Shown piece by piece: positions 17,150 to 23,657 of a DNA stretch of 42,197 nt. Below the pieces are notes generated by a model. That model saw only the letters and a list, made by a program, of their open reading frames with translations, did no database searches and was not told the origin of the DNA. Source of the stretch: Escherichia phage altidsur. The position numbers and the translations under genes are program-made. Position 1 is the stretch's first letter. The number at the start of each line of letters is the position of its first letter. The stretch lies in sequence record MN850568.1. One strand, 5' to 3'.

Positions 17150-17183
17150 TCATCTACTCATGCCTGTTATTATTTAGCAGGCA

Positions 17184-17205
17184 TTATGAAGGTGTCTATA
17201 TTGGC
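17184..17205 (+). promoter_or_regulatory. Phage promoter-like motif copy (TTATGAAGGTGTCTATATTGG), preceded by hairpin 17160-17184
   Basis: Matches the 22-bp motif at 31211-31232 in 17 of 20 core positions; perfect 7-bp stem ATGCCTG/CAGGCAT immediately upstream; precedes the gene at 17223. Confidence 0.4.
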
Positions 17206-17222
17206 CAACGTGAGGATGAAAT

Positions 17223-17426
17223 ATGTTCCGAGTTATATTGTTGTTCCTGTTCCTCGTTATTATTTGGGGAGCTTTATGGATGGCGCTGGCAGTGTTCGCA
17301 CTGATACCAGCCATCGGTGAGTCGGCTACTTCTTCGGTGGGTACGCTGCTCGGTATGCTGGTAGGCTGGGGCTTGATGCACGTAAGCCTGAGCGTAGGTC
17401 AGAGCCGGAGGTGGATTAGATGGTAA
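17223..17426 (+). CDS. Small membrane protein (two predicted TM helices), 67 aa
   Basis: Hydrophobic segments LLFLFLVIIWGALWMALAVFALI and LLGMLVGWGLMHV; downstream of a promoter-like motif. Confidence 0.5.
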   Translation: MFRVILLFLFLVIIWGALWMALAVFALIPAIGESATSSVGTLLGMLVGWGLMHVSLSVGQSRRWIRW

Positions 17427-17860
17427 AGCCTAAGTACAAAATCGGTGACGAGATTGTAGGTCACAACGACACTGGCACCCGGTCAGGTAAGCTGGGTATC
17501 GTCGCATGGGTTAACCCTGACCGCCGAGCATGGGAGCGCAGTGGCGAGACCCGCTACATCGTGAGCTGGATTGGTGAGCGGCTGAATGCACAGCCGGACA
17601 TCAGCCACTACAAGTCTGATTGGCTGGAGGATAATACCAGTCTGGTCAGCCGCAAGCCGGAAGACCGGGGCCGCTACATGTGCTTGGTCGAAGGTAGCAA
17701 TGCACCGCCGAAGGTTGAGCACATCACTGAACTGGATGCGCGGGAAGAAGCTGAGCGTTTGGCTGAGCGCAACGGAGGTACTGTCCGTGTGCTGCAAGTT
17801 GTAGCCAGCGTGAAGATGAAGAAGAAGATTCAGTACATACCAGAGTGGGATAACGAATGA
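17420..17860 (+). CDS. Hypothetical protein, 146 aa
   Basis: Translationally coupled ORF upstream of the primase. Confidence 0.55.
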   Translation: MVKPKYKIGDEIVGHNDTGTRSGKLGIVAWVNPDRRAWERSGETRYIVSWIGERLNAQPDISHYKSDWLEDNTSLVSRKPEDRGRYMCLVEGSNAPPKVEHITELDAREEAERLAERNGGTVRVLQVVASVKMKKKIQYIPEWDNE

Positions 17861-18567
17861 TGAAATCAGTGAGCAACGACGAGTGGCCGGAGCTGGCGAA
17901 GCGTCTGCCAGTAGGACAAAAGCGAAGGACGTTTCACAGTTGCTCGCGGTCATTCAGTAAGACCAACTTTGAGTATGGCCGTGCGCCGGATTACATATGG
18001 TGCAAGTGCCACCGCTGTGGGTACAGTCGCAAGCATGACCTGACTCATGCTGTGTACGTGCCGCCAGCCGAGGTGCAGGTGAAGGTGCCGACTGATGTGG
18101 TGCCTATCACTGAGGTGATTGCGAAGCAGCCCCGCCTTCTCCTGCCTGTGCTGGAGCGCGAGAACCTGATGCCGCACCTGTCCATCCTGACTGCAAGCCC
18201 AACGTATGGCAGGCTGTATCTGCCGGACGACACGGGCAGCTATTGTGGTCTGGACTATACCGGGCGGCAGTTCATACCGTGGCGCTCACCGCACAAGCAT
18301 AGCTTGGCAATGAAGGTACACCCACGCGGCGATGCTGAAACGAATTGCCTGTGGGTTTACGGTGAGGTGGACGAGTATCTCCAGCAGGTACGGGACGGGG
18401 GCAACTGTGCTTTCGTACCGAACGTGGACGACACGACATTGCAGGCGCTGGTCAGTGTGACGCTGGCCTACGGCTACAACCTCGTGGTCATCTGCCACCA
18501 CCCAAGTGCTCAACGTATCCGCAGGGAACTGCGTGTGGTAGGGCGAGTGCAGATAGTAGGAGAGTGA
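17857..18567 (+). CDS. DNA primase-like protein with zinc-ribbon (CxxxC...CxxC), 236 aa
   Basis: Cys cluster CSRSF...CKCHRCG near the N-terminus; sits directly upstream of the helicase, like the split primase/helicase of phiKMV-type phages. Confidence 0.55.
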   Translation: MMKSVSNDEWPELAKRLPVGQKRRTFHSCSRSFSKTNFEYGRAPDYIWCKCHRCGYSRKHDLTHAVYVPPAEVQVKVPTDVVPITEVIAKQPRLLLPVLERENLMPHLSILTASPTYGRLYLPDDTGSYCGLDYTGRQFIPWRSPHKHSLAMKVHPRGDAETNCLWVYGEVDEYLQQVRDGGNCAFVPNVDDTTLQALVSVTLAYGYNLVVICHHPSAQRIRRELRVVGRVQIVGE

Positions 18568-18568
18568 T

Positions 18569-19834
18569 GTGCTTGACAAGCTGTTGTTAACGGTGATGCG
18601 CGAGCGCGGGAAGTACAACTCCCTGCGACACGCCATCCCGGAAGATACAATGAGCCAGACCACGGGCTATATGCTGCGTGCTTACGGCTCATACTTTGAC
18701 GCGTTCCCGGACAGTGACTTCATTGACATTGAGACACTGGGTACGCATGTTCGTTTGAAGACAGGCAGCACGCCTGAACAGATGGCAGCCTTCGATTCGT
18801 TGTGCGCTCAGCTCAAAGAGTACAAGCCGACGAAGGAACAGAAGGAGGGCATCCTTGACCAGCTCGTAGAGTTGGACACTGCTGGTCGTGCGAACCTGCT
18901 AATGCAGAGGTACGACAATGGTGAAGAACTGGATATTATCTATGAGCTTGGCCGTCTGGCTGAGGGCGCACGCCGCAGTCGGGGTCAATCATCCGTTACC
19001 GATTACGTCGATGACGATGTTGTGGACATTATTAATCGGACTGATGATGACCAAGGCTTTAAGTTCGGTCTCATGTGCCTGCAAGATAGCGTACGCGTAC
19101 TGCTTCCCGGCGACTCCGTTGCAATCGCTGCCCGACCTGACAGTGGGAAGACCAGCTTCATCGCGTTTAACCTTACGCGAATGGCGGCGACAGCAGCGAA
19201 GCTCTATCCGGGCAGACCAATCCTGTGGTTCAACAACGAAGGGCAGGGCATCAACATCATCCCGCGCATCTATCAGGCGGCGCTCAACTGTACGCTCCCG
19301 GAACTGAAAGAGCTGGGTGAGGACAGGAGCAAGCTGCACGCTGCGTATGCCAAGGCACTGGGTGCGCCAGCCAATGTGATTCGTGTGAAGGATATGCACG
19401 GTGCAACGCTGGCGAAAGCTGAGCAGGTTATCGAAGCGATGAACCCGTGCATTGTGGTGTGGGATATGCTTGCCAACTTCAAGCTGTCTGTGTCTGACCC
19501 GTCCAGTAACAAGGCGAGTCAGGTCGAGCAGCTATGGCAGGAGGTACGTGAGCTGGCTGTGCGTCACAACTTCGTGTCGCTGGCTACGGTTCAGGTATCT
19601 GCTGATGGTGCCGACGATATGTTCCCGGCACTGGATGCACTCAAGGATTCCAAGACTGGTATCCAAGGGGCGACTGATGTTATCGTGATGCTCGGCAGTG
19701 TGGATGACCCATCACTGGCAGCACGGCGCGGTGTCAGTACGCCGAAGAACAAACGCCAGATTGCTGGGCGTCCAAGCAACGTGCGGTCACAGGTACACTT
19801 CTTTGCCGACCGCTGCCAATACGAGGATATGTAA
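18569..19834 (+). CDS. DNA helicase (DnaB/T7 gp4 helicase-domain family), 421 aa
   Basis: Walker A (ARPDSGKTSF); Walker B-like IVVWDML and further downstream helicase-like segments; GTG start overlapping the upstream stop. Confidence 0.8.
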   Translation: MLDKLLLTVMRERGKYNSLRHAIPEDTMSQTTGYMLRAYGSYFDAFPDSDFIDIETLGTHVRLKTGSTPEQMAAFDSLCAQLKEYKPTKEQKEGILDQLVELDTAGRANLLMQRYDNGEELDIIYELGRLAEGARRSRGQSSVTDYVDDDVVDIINRTDDDQGFKFGLMCLQDSVRVLLPGDSVAIAARPDSGKTSFIAFNLTRMAATAAKLYPGRPILWFNNEGQGINIIPRIYQAALNCTLPELKELGEDRSKLHAAYAKALGAPANVIRVKDMHGATLAKAEQVIEAMNPCIVVWDMLANFKLSVSDPSSNKASQVEQLWQEVRELAVRHNFVSLATVQVSADGADDMFPALDALKDSKTGIQGATDVIVMLGSVDDPSLAARRGVSTPKNKRQIAGRPSNVRSQVHFFADRCQYEDM

Positions 19835-20196
19835 TGAGCCATTTAAAGGTAGGCGACCGAGTAGTAAACATTGATGCACGCAGTGTGCATTACGGTGCGA
19901 AGGGTACTGTGGTTGACATCAACGACAAGTACGTGAGCATTGACCGCGATGATGGTGCGCGTGGTTCTGGTATCAGCGGCTCGTGGACTGCACGCCATGC
20001 GTCGTGGGCGCGGATTGGTGACGCGCCGCATGTGGCAGCCACGCCGGAACCGGAGGCGACTGCCGAGGACTGGAGTTACGCTGAGGCTGAGCGTCTGTAC
20101 CAAGCGGCGTGCGATGCCATGTCAGTGTACAACCAGTACGTTGAGCGTAAGCCAACGACCAGCTACCTGCCCGGCAGCGTGCCGAGTAAGTGGTGA
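19834..20196 (+). CDS. Hypothetical protein, 120 aa
   Basis: TAATG-coupled ORF; N-terminal KVGDRVV...GTVVDI resembles a small beta-barrel fold. Confidence 0.5.
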   Translation: MSHLKVGDRVVNIDARSVHYGAKGTVVDINDKYVSIDRDDGARGSGISGSWTARHASWARIGDAPHVAATPEPEATAEDWSYAEAERLYQAACDAMSVYNQYVERKPTTSYLPGSVPSKW

Positions 20197-20360
20197 AGGG
20201 TCGCAGCTATCGCCGTTGCTCTTGCGGCGGCAGTCTGCTGGCTGAGCAGACCAAGGGCAAGGCCACTGGCAAGACGCTGGTGATTTACGAGTGTGAAAAG
20301 TGTGGAGTAAAGCAGTATGGAAGAACGCACGTATCGAGCGGCACCCTTAAACCAACGTGA
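20193..20360 (+). CDS. Zinc-ribbon mini-protein (55 aa, GTG start; CxC...CxxC)
   Basis: GTG overlapping the upstream TGA stop; four Cys arranged C-S-C ... C-E-K-C; not in the ORF track. Confidence 0.3.
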   Translation: MKGRSYRRCSCGGSLLAEQTKGKATGKTLVIYECEKCGVKQYGRTHVSSGTLKPT

Positions 20361-20508
20361 GCAAGCAACCATCCGGGCGCAGTACCGGAAGGGTGATGCG
20401 TTCCGTGGTGCTGAGGCGCTGGCCGAACGTTTCAATGTGCCGCCTGCTGATGTGGTGGCAGTGGTGAACTTCACTTATCGCAAGGGGAAACAGAAGCATG
20501 ATAAGTAA
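20317..20508 (+). CDS. Small basic hypothetical protein, 63 aa
   Basis: ORF in the gap before the nucleotidyltransferase-like gene; overlaps the zinc-ribbon ORF, so at most one reading may be correct here. Confidence 0.35.
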   Translation: MEERTYRAAPLNQREQATIRAQYRKGDAFRGAEALAERFNVPPADVVAVVNFTYRKGKQKHDK

Positions 20509-21181
20509 TGCAGAAGTCAAGCGCGTATGGGCAGAGGACATCTGCCGTCTGCTGCAATCACATGAGCTGAACTTTGTGGTTGCCGGGGGAGGGGCAAGGG
20601 ATACAGCGCTGGGTGTTGAGCCGAAGGACTATGACATCGTGGTCTTCGGTTGGGGTGGGGATGTAAGCCGCGTGGTCGGTAGATTGGAATGGTTGGACAC
20701 CAACCTCGAAGCGTATGCCAAGCAGCACAACCTGCCGTATGAGTACATGCCAAGCTACCACGACGCAGCCGAGGGCGGCGACTTCGGTTCCCGTCTGTAC
20801 GGTGTGTTCAAGCTCGGCCCGGTTGACATCATCATTAGTAAATGTGGCTGCTGGTCACAGGTGCTGAGCGAGTTCGACTTCAACCTGAACCAGTTCTACT
20901 TCCCGTCCAGTATCCCGCGATACTCCGGGCAGTACAGCCGTGACCCCGGTGAGTTCATGGCGTACCCGTACGAGCCGAAGCTAACAGCCGAGGACGTGCA
21001 GTGGTATCCGGCGCTGGCCAGTCTGGTTGAAAGCTACGACGACCTGCTGACTCTCCGTGTCTGCCGACCGGATGCCAGCCTGAGTCGTGTGGCCTACATG
21101 CTGGAGAAGCACGAGACACACCGCGAGCGCATCGAAGCATACGTCAATCGTATGCCAGACCATTTGGGTGGCACAGCATAG
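20498..21181 (+). CDS. Pol-beta-superfamily nucleotidyltransferase-like protein (CCA-adding/poly(A) polymerase head-domain motif), 227 aa
   Basis: Motif VAGGGARDTALGVEPKDYDIVVF fits the GGxVRD...DxD signature of class II nucleotidyltransferases, read by eye. Confidence 0.5.
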   Translation: MISNAEVKRVWAEDICRLLQSHELNFVVAGGGARDTALGVEPKDYDIVVFGWGGDVSRVVGRLEWLDTNLEAYAKQHNLPYEYMPSYHDAAEGGDFGSRLYGVFKLGPVDIIISKCGCWSQVLSEFDFNLNQFYFPSSIPRYSGQYSRDPGEFMAYPYEPKLTAEDVQWYPALASLVESYDDLLTLRVCRPDASLSRVAYMLEKHETHRERIEAYVNRMPDHLGGTA

Positions 21182-21191
21182 CGGGGGATGA

Positions 21192-23657
21192 ATGGCAATA
21201 AGAGCACAGGTAATCGACGTTGAGACTGAGAACCATGAGTGGTATGGGGAGCTGGCATCGCCGCGCTGCCCAGATAACTATGTGGTTATGCAGGGCCAGC
21301 GTGACTGTGTGCTGACCAAGGATGGCTGGGTATTCTACGAGCGCGAGGAGTATCGGTACAGTTCTCGTGAGGACTGGTTGCAGAACAAGAGTCTGCACCT
21401 GCATCCTGACACGAACATTCTGGTAGCTCACAACGCGCCGTATGAATTGAGCTGGTGGTTCGAGCATTACGGTGACGAGTTCATTGCCTTCCTCAAACGA
21501 GGTGGCCGTGTATTCTGTACCGCGTATGCTGAGTACCTGCTGACGCATCAGCAATCCCAGTACCCATCCTTGAACGAGACAGCACCGAAGTATGGTGGTA
21601 CTCACAAGGTGGATGCAGTCAAGGCAATGTGGGAGTCAGGCTACCTGACCAGCCAGATTGACCCTGAGCTGCTGAGCGAGTATCTGTCCGGGCCGTCCGG
21701 GGATATTGAGAACACGACCAAGCTGTTCGTTGGTCAGTGGGCTGAACTGACAAAGCAGGGCATGTTGCCGATGGCACTGACCCGCTTCGAAGGTATGCTC
21801 ATGTGGGCGTACATGATGCACGCTGGTCTGCATGTTGACCGTGAGGTAGCCGAGCGCAACCGTCGCGAGTTACAGGATGCAATCAGTGGGCTGACTGAAA
21901 CGCTGCTGAGTTACCTGCCAGCCGACATGCCGAAGGAAGCGCGTGAGCAATTCAAGTTCACGTCAGCTTATCACATGAGCGCCTTCGTGTTCGGTGGTGT
22001 GATGAAGTACAAGGCGCGAGTCGAGCGCCGGGATGCCGAGGGCAATCTCATTTACGTGAAGGTGGATGCACCACTGTTCAAGCGAGGCAAGGACAAGTGG
22101 CTCAAGCATACCAGCGAGTGTGAGTGGGATGACGAGACTGGGTTGTGGTATGACCCGGTTGAGAAGGTACACCAGACTATCTACACCAGCGGCAAGCACA
22201 AGGGCGAGCCGAAGTTTGAGAAGCTGGCTACCGACGAGGTGGATACCAAGTGGGGTGAGGTGCTGTTCCGTATGCCGGGGCTTCTGCGTGTGCAGGACAA
22301 ACGAGCGAAGGAGATTGCAGACAACCTCGAATGGGAAGACCCGAAGAAGCCGGGCGAGTATCTCCGGCGCACAGGTGATTGGGTAGGTAAGCGTAGGCTG
22401 GCCGATGGTTCCCCGGTATTCAGTACGGCGGGTGAGGTGCTGGACATTCTGGCAGCTCGTAAGATTCCCGGCGTGGTGGAGATTGCTGACCGGGCCAAGG
22501 CACAGAAAGACCTCGGCACCTACTACCTCAGCGAGACGTTCGATGAAGAAGGTAACGTGACTGGCCAGTCGGGGATGATGCAGTTCATCCAGCCGGACAG
22601 TATCGTACACCACACCATCAACATGACCGCGACCGAGACGACGCGCTTATCTTCGGCGCGACCGAACAGCCAGAACTTGCCACGTAAAGGTACGAGTAAG
22701 GTTAAGCAGATGTTCACCTCCCGCTTTGGTGAAGGTGGCCGCATCGTTGAAGCTGACTACTCGGCACTGGAAGTGGTGGGGCTGGCCGGGTTCAGTAAGG
22801 ATAAGAACCTGATTCGTGCATTGCTCGACGGTATCGACATGCACTGTATGCGTCTGTCAGCTCAGCTCAACGAGCCATACGAGGACGTGCTTAAGAAGTG
22901 CAAGGATGAATCCCATCCCGACCATGCACGATACAGTCAGATGCGTACTGACATTAAGCCGAAGGCGTTCTCATATCAGTATGGTGCAACAGCGCGAGGT
23001 ATTGCGTACTCGACTGGTTGCTCTGAGGAAGAAGCTCAAGCGTTCATCGACAACGAGAAGGGTCTGTTCCCGGAAGTTGAAGAATGGTTCGACGCGGTTA
23101 TCTTCCCTGCCGTAGAGAAAAGTGGACAGAGCAATGTATTCAAGGAGCAGGACGAGAACGGGCGGTGGCAGGTGTATCGCCGTGGTCACTTCCGTTCGCC
23201 GGGTGGAACTTGTTATTCATTCCGTCAGTACGAGAAATGGAACAAGGCGGCGCGTGCTCACCTGATGGAATACAAACCAACTCAGATGCGTAACTATCCC
23301 ATTCAGGGTGAGACAGCATTTTGGGTACAGGGAATCGGTGGCTTGCTGTTCCGCTGGCTGCTATCGAATGACTTCTTTGGTGGGCGTGTGGTTCCCATCA
23401 ACCAAGTGCATGACGCATTCTATTTCGACATTGCACCTGACTGCCCTCACGAGTTCTTCGTTGGACTCAAGGCAATCATGGAGAGCATCCCGGAATACTA
23501 TAACCACGTATGGCCAGAGTATAACCTGACAGTGCCGTTCCCGGCAGAGGTGGAAGCAGGGCCAAGCATGTACGAGAAGCACCACGTAGAGACGACAGCC
23601 GATGAAGTGCTGGAGTTTAAGAGACAATTCCTGACGAGTAAGGGTATCGCATTATGA
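21192..23657 (+). CDS. DNA polymerase, family A, with 3'-5' exonuclease domain, 821 aa
   Basis: Exo I DVETE near the N-terminus; motif A DYSALEV, motif B RTDIKPKAFSYQYGA, motif C QVHDAF. Confidence 0.9.
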   Translation: MAIRAQVIDVETENHEWYGELASPRCPDNYVVMQGQRDCVLTKDGWVFYEREEYRYSSREDWLQNKSLHLHPDTNILVAHNAPYELSWWFEHYGDEFIAFLKRGGRVFCTAYAEYLLTHQQSQYPSLNETAPKYGGTHKVDAVKAMWESGYLTSQIDPELLSEYLSGPSGDIENTTKLFVGQWAELTKQGMLPMALTRFEGMLMWAYMMHAGLHVDREVAERNRRELQDAISGLTETLLSYLPADMPKEAREQFKFTSAYHMSAFVFGGVMKYKARVERRDAEGNLIYVKVDAPLFKRGKDKWLKHTSECEWDDETGLWYDPVEKVHQTIYTSGKHKGEPKFEKLATDEVDTKWGEVLFRMPGLLRVQDKRAKEIADNLEWEDPKKPGEYLRRTGDWVGKRRLADGSPVFSTAGEVLDILAARKIPGVVEIADRAKAQKDLGTYYLSETFDEEGNVTGQSGMMQFIQPDSIVHHTINMTATETTRLSSARPNSQNLPRKGTSKVKQMFTSRFGEGGRIVEADYSALEVVGLAGFSKDKNLIRALLDGIDMHCMRLSAQLNEPYEDVLKKCKDESHPDHARYSQMRTDIKPKAFSYQYGATARGIAYSTGCSEEEAQAFIDNEKGLFPEVEEWFDAVIFPAVEKSGQSNVFKEQDENGRWQVYRRGHFRSPGGTCYSFRQYEKWNKAARAHLMEYKPTQMRNYPIQGETAFWVQGIGGLLFRWLLSNDFFGGRVVPINQVHDAFYFDIAPDCPHEFFVGLKAIMESIPEYYNHVWPEYNLTVPFPAEVEAGPSMYEKHHVETTADEVLEFKRQFLTSKGIAL

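Follow-up and report, generated by a model that had tools for sequence, protein, structure and literature searches.

A probable zinc-ribbon gene overlaps a second conserved gene between the helicase and DNA polymerase genes of Bonnellvirus phages

The DNA analysed here is a stretch of 42,197 nucleotides (nt) from Escherichia phage altidsur (MN850568.1), called the window in its full length. Between its helicase and DNA polymerase genes lies a short open reading frame (ORF) with four cysteine codons, referred to below as the ZR gene for its putative zinc ribbon. Its start overlaps the stop codon of a gene for a protein of 120 amino acids (aa), and its end overlaps the start of a gene for a 63-aa protein. 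We report that both overlapping frames have the conservation and substitution pattern of genuine genes. All genes of the window are on the plus strand, and a 901-nt stretch around ZR is 99.9% identical, as the reverse complement, to Escherichia phage aldrigsur (MN850592; Autographiviridae, Bonnellvirus). The features of the locus are the following.

20190/20193-20360, plus strand: ZR gene, supported by the ORF and its conservation; absent from the aldrigsur GenBank annotation
20217-20225, plus strand: first knuckle, Cys10-Ser-Cys12 (TGC TCT TGC), C-x-C in the window
20292-20303, plus strand: second knuckle, Cys35-Glu-Lys-Cys38 (TGT GAA AAG TGT)
20304-20307, plus strand: GGAG, the Shine-Dalgarno sequence of the 63-aa gene, located 9 nt ahead of the ATG within ZR codons Gly39-Val40
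20317-20360, plus strand: dual-coding overlap of 44 nt, shared by the C-terminal tail of ZR (YGRTHVSSGTLKPT) and codons 1-14 of the 63-aa gene
20317-20508, plus strand: 63-aa gene, phrog_31596 (PHROG match with an expectation value, E, of 9.6e-38)

Read from the GTG at 20193-20195, whose bases are partly shared with the stop codon of the upstream 120-aa ORF (TGA, 20194-20196), the ZR frame has 55 codons and ends with the TGA at 20358-20360. It encodes VKGRSYRRCSCGGSLL...IYECEKCG..., also shown as ...RRCSCGG...YECEKCG..., with cysteine codons at 20217-20219, 20223-20225, 20292-20294 and 20301-20303. The first-pass annotation of this DNA had described a GTG-initiated 55-codon frame that overlaps the preceding stop within a replication module, and the coordinates 20193-20360 bear this out; the overlap that it reported with a small ORF in a different frame (20317-20508) is equally real and measures 44 nt; the second ORF is shifted by +1 relative to ZR. 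Begun at another in-frame GTG, at 20190, ZR would have 56 codons. Phage Lidtsur has an ATG at the equivalent of 20190 and a non-start GTA at the equivalent of 20193, and the metagenomic contig L027 has an ATG at the equivalent of 20193, so that the start of ZR is either 20190 or 20193. Six small ORFs (40-100 aa, in the six frames of the window) fit a loose four-cysteine pattern, versus 2.6 ± 1.6 in shuffled sequences. Length and cysteine pattern are thus not above chance, and it is by conservation alone that the reality of ZR is established.

Fourteen Bonnellvirus sequences were aligned, and non-synonymous and synonymous differences were counted by the Nei-Gojobori method in each frame separately, over a zone that codes for ZR only (20193-20315) and a zone that codes for the 63-aa protein only (20362-20496). 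In the first zone the ratio of non-synonymous to synonymous differences per site (pN/pS) was 0.21 in the ZR frame versus 1.32 and 1.05 in the other two plus-strand frames, and the variable columns were distributed 5/6/19 over the three codon positions (chi-square, p = 0.002). In the second zone the corresponding values were 0.16 in the 63-aa frame versus 1.35 and 3.7, with variable columns distributed 9/11/32. The antisense frame that shares the wobble positions of ZR also had a low ratio (0.31), but it contains stops in 14/14 genomes. ZR is the sole frame of the six that is open in all 14 Bonnellvirus genomes; it is also open in Pantoea phage LIMEzero and in L026, L027, L030 and L031. Pairwise comparisons of ZR gave a pN/pS of 0.25 between the window and L027 and of 0.46 between LIMEzero and L026. 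Together, this frame-specific selection and the conservation of both frames indicate that ZR and the 63-aa gene are both real and under purifying selection as proteins. The suggestion of the first-pass annotation that one frame of the pair is probably spurious is contradicted by these results, since both frames are under purifying selection outside the overlap (0.21 and 0.16 versus 1.05-3.7 in the other same-strand frames) and both genes are conserved. It had also named interruptions of the ZR frame by stop codons or frameshifts in close relatives as evidence that would speak against ZR; no such interruption occurs in any relative carrying the segment.

Within the overlap itself pN/pS rose in both frames (ZR, 0.63; 63-aa, 0.85), values obtained from 4 haplotypes only; both proteins are relaxed there. 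Separately, nucleotide diversity among the Bonnellviruses was 0.084 in the ZR-only zone (20193-20316) versus 0.16 in the flanks (20080-20189 and 20361-20497), and synonymous divergence (pS) was likewise lower, at 0.24 versus 0.41. Possible reasons for the lower diversity are an extra constraint at the nucleotide level, a recent exchange of the segment or the noise of a small sample.

The distribution of the two genes was examined by tblastn. ZR was found in 18 distinct phage genomes (21 records), and both proteins are encoded in all Bonnellvirus records except that of Escherichia phage LF82-23, which has the 63-aa gene only, and in LIMEzero (Waewaevirus). Within Bonnellvirus, identity to the window ranges from 80 to 98% for ZR and from 82 to 100% for the 63-aa protein; in LIMEzero it falls to 44% (E 8e-5) and 63%, respectively. 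A HMMER profile search of 1.84 billion representative proteins added one true homologue, P0010 (58 aa, E 3e-6), encoded on the 44-kb metagenomic phage contig L026 in the order helicase, 124 aa, ZR, 63 aa, 53 aa, nucleotidyltransferase, polymerase. The other 19 matches of that search were long cysteine-rich or repeat proteins with many short matching stretches, and were rejected as compositional. A word-indexed search of 5.8 billion sequences returned only the proteins of Lidtsur and Kc261, a scan of IMG/VR returned four loci (J8-65, Lidtsur, LIMEzero and a close relative, L018), and a scan of JGI metagenomes returned two more close relatives. No domain fusion that would hint at a function was seen in the protein databases and contig scans. 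The ZR family is real but narrow.

LF82-23 (L004, 1888-1900) lacks ZR cleanly and keeps the neighbouring genes: only 11 nt, which include AGGAG, separate the 120-aa stop from the 63-aa ATG, and the CGT-GAG codon pair from which ZR takes its TGA reads CGA-GAG here. A second contig, L028 (Logan ERR3304356, 189-197), is also without ZR and keeps the 120-aa and 63-aa genes, joined by a short remodelled spacer with a Shine-Dalgarno sequence. Because the outgroups LIMEzero and L026 carry ZR, parsimony favours at least two losses of the gene. The isolate LF82-23 forms plaques, so ZR is dispensable in at least one host, and the existence of two related lineages without it indicates that ZR is an accessory factor and not a core part of the replisome.

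Annotation of the segment differs from record to record. Only the 63-aa ORF is annotated, leaving a 120-nt hole, in aldrigsur, mellemsur, megetsur, HHU8, forsur, usur, glasur, smaasur, J8-65, RZ4 and LIMEzero (the hole is the unannotated gap 21420-21539 of the aldrigsur record); only ZR is annotated in Kc261 and Lidtsur; and both are annotated in ROV85. The inconsistency over this stretch of 300 nt extends across GenBank records MN850592, MW250275, MK629528, PP526764, NC_015585 and others (loci L001-L015), and the Logan gene calls on L027 skip ZR despite its ATG start there. Full-text literature searches returned no paper on the ZR gene, and the paper on Kc261 makes no mention of zinc.

The start of ZR overlaps the stop of the 120-aa gene in every lineage that bears ZR, in forms that differ between lineages: GTGA/GTGGTGA in the window, ATGGTAA in Lidtsur, ATGA in L026, TGATG in L027 and GTGAGTAA in LIMEzero. 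The Shine-Dalgarno sequence upstream of ZR is weak (GAG). Given the conserved stop/start overlap and this weak site, ZR is most likely made by translational coupling (termination-reinitiation), with the 120-aa gene as the putative ribosome donor, a view that draws on the established behaviour of phage operons. The 63-aa gene is arranged differently. Its ATG lies inside the conserved Tyr-Gly codons of ZR (T-ATG-G), and its GGAG is kept in most Bonnellvirus sequences and in LIMEzero, being replaced by GGGG in Lidtsur and GGAT in L026. RNA around the 63-aa start folds less well than shuffled sequences (z +1.61; 196/200 shuffles fold at least as well), which fits an open and independent initiation site. 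Neither at this start nor at that of ZR was there an excess of RNA structure relative to shuffles, which argues against an RNA element and against a translational switch of the kind operated by Com of phage Mu.

The overlap is exactly 44 nt long in the window, LIMEzero, L026, L027, L030 and L031. Both overlapping segments were modelled as unstructured termini by AlphaFold2 (AF2), with a predicted local distance difference test (pLDDT) score below 50 for the tail of ZR. The 63-aa protein was modelled as a three-helix bundle (pLDDT 81) with the appearance of a helix-turn-helix (HTH), and its nearest neighbours in Foldseek were HTH DNA-binding domains, at non-significant scores.

The ZR protein has a mass of ~6 kDa, an isoelectric point of 9.75 and, with 11 Lys and Arg versus 3 Asp and Glu, a net charge of +8. 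In the family alignment (A2) the invariant residues are R5, R9, C10, C12, G13, G27-K28, L30, Y33, C35, G39 and Y43-G44-R45; Cys38 is present in 7/8 aligned sequences and is replaced by Asp in LIMEzero. The knuckles of the three main lineages compare as follows.

Bonnellvirus: CSCG, then CEKCG
LIMEzero: CPTCG, then C-TEDG (fourth ligand Asp)
L026: C-CAECG, then CKCG (C-x-C spacing)

The first-pass annotation had called this a classic four-cysteine zinc ribbon. A genuine coding frame with cysteine knuckles is indeed present, but the first knuckle is C-x-C and not the classic C-P-x-C-G; the classic form is kept in LIMEzero (CPTCG), and the C-x2-C-G spacing in L026 (CAECG). In forsur, usur, glasur, Lidtsur and L031, Ser15 is replaced by Cys (CSCGGC, equivalent to 20232-20234), which gives a C-x2-C spacing beside the C-x-C knuckle. 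From these sequences the set of metal ligands appears to be evolutionarily labile.

The AF2 model of ZR, run on a shallow alignment, has strands at residues 5-9, 16-23, 29-35 and 41-44, with the knuckles directly after strands 1 and 3 and with residues 48-56 disordered. In Foldseek searches of PDB and BFVD, both lists were headed by the ribbons of Rpb9/A12.2/C11, TFIIS, TFIIB, Rpp21 and NUDIX proteins (E 0.2-1, template modelling score 0.3-0.55). The sub-threshold Pfam matches were likewise all ribbons (RNHCP, L44e, DUF1922 and those of topoisomerases, recombinases and Cas12f), and five to six of the eight family members matched RNHCP, L44 and DUF1922 across the knuckle-hairpin-knuckle region. 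Ribosomal_L44 (PF00935; 15.1 bits versus a cutoff of 25) and DUF1922 (PF09082; 13 versus 30) missed their thresholds. The best ZR match among the PHROGs had an E of 0.025 without a matched stretch, so no family was reached there; none was reached in PADLOC, where there was no match, or in PDB sequence searches. A match to WRKY (E 0.44) was treated as chance. A zinc-ribbon-type fold is probable on this evidence, and a protein of this kind would bind zinc. The family that ZR represents is new and narrow in sequence, but its fold is of a kind already known.

Taken together, ZR is very likely a genuine protein-coding gene of Bonnellvirus that is coupled with the 120-aa gene, overlaps a real 63-aa gene and probably specifies a small accessory protein of the zinc-ribbon type, which may bind nucleic acid. 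In the mechanism that we propose, two cysteine knuckles (C10/C12 and C35/C38) would flank a β-hairpin to form a small zinc-ribbon-type fold. Ribosomes that terminate on the 120-aa gene would reinitiate at the overlapping ZR start, while the 63-aa gene would be initiated separately, on unstructured mRNA, from the GGAG within the codons of the second-knuckle region. The shared 44 nt would then serve both a probably disordered ZR tail and the N terminus of the 63-aa protein. As to function, homology offers no assignment, since no characterised protein is detectably related to ZR. The net charge of +8, the ribbon fold and the genomic neighbours, which include nucleic-acid enzymes, the HTH-like 63-aa protein and the 120-aa protein with its sub-threshold SH3/ProQ-C-like N terminus, hint that ZR may be a small accessory factor that binds nucleic acid in the DNA-metabolism stage of the phage, an assignment that we advance tentatively and hold to be somewhat short of an even chance. 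A modulation of polymerases, which the first-pass annotation described as frequent among small zinc ribbons of phage replication modules, would be conjecture in the case of ZR.

Several points weigh against this interpretation. The knuckles are atypical and variable (C-x-C, and Asp as the fourth ligand in LIMEzero), which leaves zinc binding no more than plausible. The AF2 model has a mean pLDDT of 63, that is, moderate confidence only; Foldseek gave no significant match in PDB and BFVD except the Lidtsur orthologue; and the best Pfam match, RNHCP (PF12647), stays below threshold, at 18.6 bits (E 0.0018) versus a cutoff of 24, with an E of 0.0012 for the best family member. The case for nucleic-acid binding draws solely on charge, fold class and neighbourhood, and the patchy presence of the gene would fit a role in host interaction or anti-defence equally well.

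That last possibility is the strongest of the alternatives. ZR might act on a host protein, as an accessory factor of host takeover or anti-defence comparable to the small proteins, not essential for growth, that T7 encodes around its genes 4-6; the patchiness of ZR would then reflect host-specific selection. The clean absence of ZR from two related lineages that keep all neighbouring genes speaks for this, as does the narrowness of a family known from 18 phage genomes and a few contigs. ZR is also followed directly by a small HTH-like gene, and the two would in this respect resemble an acr-aca pair. However, neither PADLOC nor Pfam gave a match; a pN/pS of 0.21 and a diversity of 0.084 versus 0.16 in the neighbours are unlike those of fast-evolving counter-defence genes; and a strongly positive charge is commoner among proteins that bind nucleic acid. 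We therefore regard an action on a host protein as unlikely, with about one chance in four in its favour. The narrower version, in which ZR would be a host-specific factor (for example, of counter-defence or takeover) paired with the downstream HTH-like gene in the acr-aca manner, is an analogy and rather improbable. If true, it would explain the strong conservation of ZR where present, at least two clean losses and the confinement of the gene to a small clade of enterobacterial Autographiviridae.

The remaining alternatives concern the overlap and fare much worse. A regulator like Mu Com, which would bind its own mRNA at the overlap and control translation of the 63-aa gene, could account for a basic protein and for the 44-nt overlap with the 63-aa start that is invariant in every ZR lineage. 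It is nevertheless very unlikely: the initiation region is unusually unstructured (z +1.61) and offers no hairpin to melt, the 63-aa gene has a GGAG of its own and survives behind an ordinary ribosome-binding site where ZR is missing (LF82-23 and L028), and no match to the Com family was found in Pfam. Still less probable is that the ZR frame goes untranslated, its conservation stemming from an RNA or DNA element or an antisense gene, leaving the 63-aa ORF as the one real gene. ZR is indeed passed over in most GenBank records and by most gene callers, it starts with GTG and has a weak Shine-Dalgarno sequence, and the low pS (0.24 versus 0.41) could hint at a constraint at the nucleotide level. 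Against this, substitutions are concentrated threefold at the wobble positions of ZR, and a pN/pS of 0.21 is found in that frame only; a 103-codon antisense ORF has the wrong periodicity, and the antisense frame with the low ratio (0.31) is closed by stops in all 14 genomes. Nor is there a signal of RNA structure; ATG starts occur in Lidtsur, L026 and L027; and at 43-48% identity it is the Cys and Gly residues of the knuckles that are conserved. Least probable of all is a programmed +1 frameshift that would fuse ZR and the 63-aa ORF into a zinc-ribbon-HTH protein. The +1 relation of the two frames, the invariant length of the overlap and a rare AGA codon within it would suit such an event, but the sequence contains no site recognisable for a +1 shift; the 63-aa gene, served by a conserved ATG and GGAG of its own, stands alone in LF82-23 and L028; and there is no fused homologue among the 1.84 billion representative proteins.

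The wider setting of ZR is a tightly packed operon order of primase, helicase, 120-aa gene, ZR, 63-aa gene, nucleotidyltransferase and DNA polymerase. The neighbouring genes are these.

17857-18567, plus strand: primase
18569-19834, plus strand: DnaB-like helicase
19834-20196, plus strand: 120-aa gene, annotated as hypothetical (ORF list; annotated in all related records)
20498-21181, plus strand: nucleotidyltransferase-like gene (phrog_1614, E 1.6e-42; annotations in related records)
21192-23657, plus strand: DNA polymerase I

The 3′ end of the 63-aa gene overlaps the start of the nucleotidyltransferase-like gene by 11 nt. Inside the module no promoters or terminators were detected above the expectation from shuffled sequences. 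Ahead of the small genes that lie before the primase gene, an AT-rich intergenic stretch (17150-17225) with sigma-70-like hexamers and an inverted repeat (CATGCCTG...CAGGCATT) may be the terminator/promoter boundary of the transcription unit that includes ZR. The primase has a Cys/His cluster of its own near the N terminus (HSC...CKCHRCG), so ZR is not needed as its zinc-binding domain. The N terminus of the 120-aa protein gave sub-threshold Pfam matches to an SH3-like domain (SH3_12, E 6e-5, below cutoff) and to a phage ProQ-C-terminal-like domain (E 0.04), its conserved C-terminal segment corresponds to phrog_19629, and the tail of its gene has a pN/pS of 0.22; judged by its sequence, this protein may be another small nucleic-acid-binding protein. 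For the nucleotidyltransferase-like protein, weak or faint precomputed matches to Pfam PF26128 (Gad2) exist in three relatives (L026 6491-7189, L027 3180-3854 and L028 381-1067), and a Pfam scan of the protein of the window listed only PolyA_pol (E 0.04).

A conserved gene is thus missing from most deposited genomes of the genus Bonnellvirus and is without a PHROG family; gene callers evidently drop one partner of the 44-nt overlap. Frame-specific substitution analysis resolves annotation conflicts of this type between overlapping ORFs. ZR adds a small family of the predicted zinc-ribbon type to the uncharacterised accessory proteins of the replication modules of E. coli, Enterobacter and Cronobacter phages that are therapeutic candidates. 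Unless a specific target of ZR is found the gene is biologically ordinary, and its value lies in annotation practice and in a candidate accessory factor.

Among known proteins, ZR most resembles the zinc ribbons of TFIIS (domain III), Rpb9/A12.2/C11 (C-terminal), TFIIB (N-terminal) and Rpp21. It shares with them two cysteine knuckles ~22 residues apart, a predicted antiparallel sheet of three to four strands and a small, basic character that would suit contact with nucleic acid. It differs in its knuckles (C-x-C/C-x2-C versus C-x2-C/C-x2-C), in the structural E values of at least 0.2, in the lack of detectable sequence homology and in being a free-standing 6-kDa phage protein without the catalytic acidic loop. 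RNHCP, Ribosomal_L44 and DUF1922 are the best profile matches, all below cutoff, and express a likeness to zinc ribbons in general and to no specific family.

Among phage proteins, the late-gene activators Ogr of P2 and Delta of P4 are also small zinc-binding proteins (a property predicted for ZR) with 22 residues between the knuckles; their spacing is C-x2-C-x22-C-x4-C, a likeness that serves as a lead only. Among the 18 Pfam families listed for the eight ZR members at E ≤ 10, Ogr/Delta does not occur, although HMMER filters may hide very weak matches. Unlike Ogr and Delta, ZR occurs in lytic Autographiviridae phages with their own RNA polymerase and is dispensable. Mu Com, like ZR, is a small basic Cys4 protein encoded in overlap with the beginning of the following gene: com overlaps mom, whose translation Com activates. 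The initiation region of the 63-aa gene, by contrast, is open and not occluded by a hairpin, the 63-aa gene persists without ZR, and no sequence match links the two proteins. A positional orthologue was sought in Edwardsiella, Klebsiella, Proteus and Yersinia phages, where cysteine-rich ORFs do occur. Proteus phage PM1 (94-aa and 104-aa ORFs; L024 980-1535) and Yersinia phage phi80-18 (g23; L025 984-1184) encode proteins with C-x2-C motifs at the analogous position between helicase and ligase/polymerase; the PM1 ORFs were rejected as homologues of ZR (hhalign probability 4-5%, no detectable homology). Different small, putative zinc-binding proteins thus recur at similar locations in these modules.

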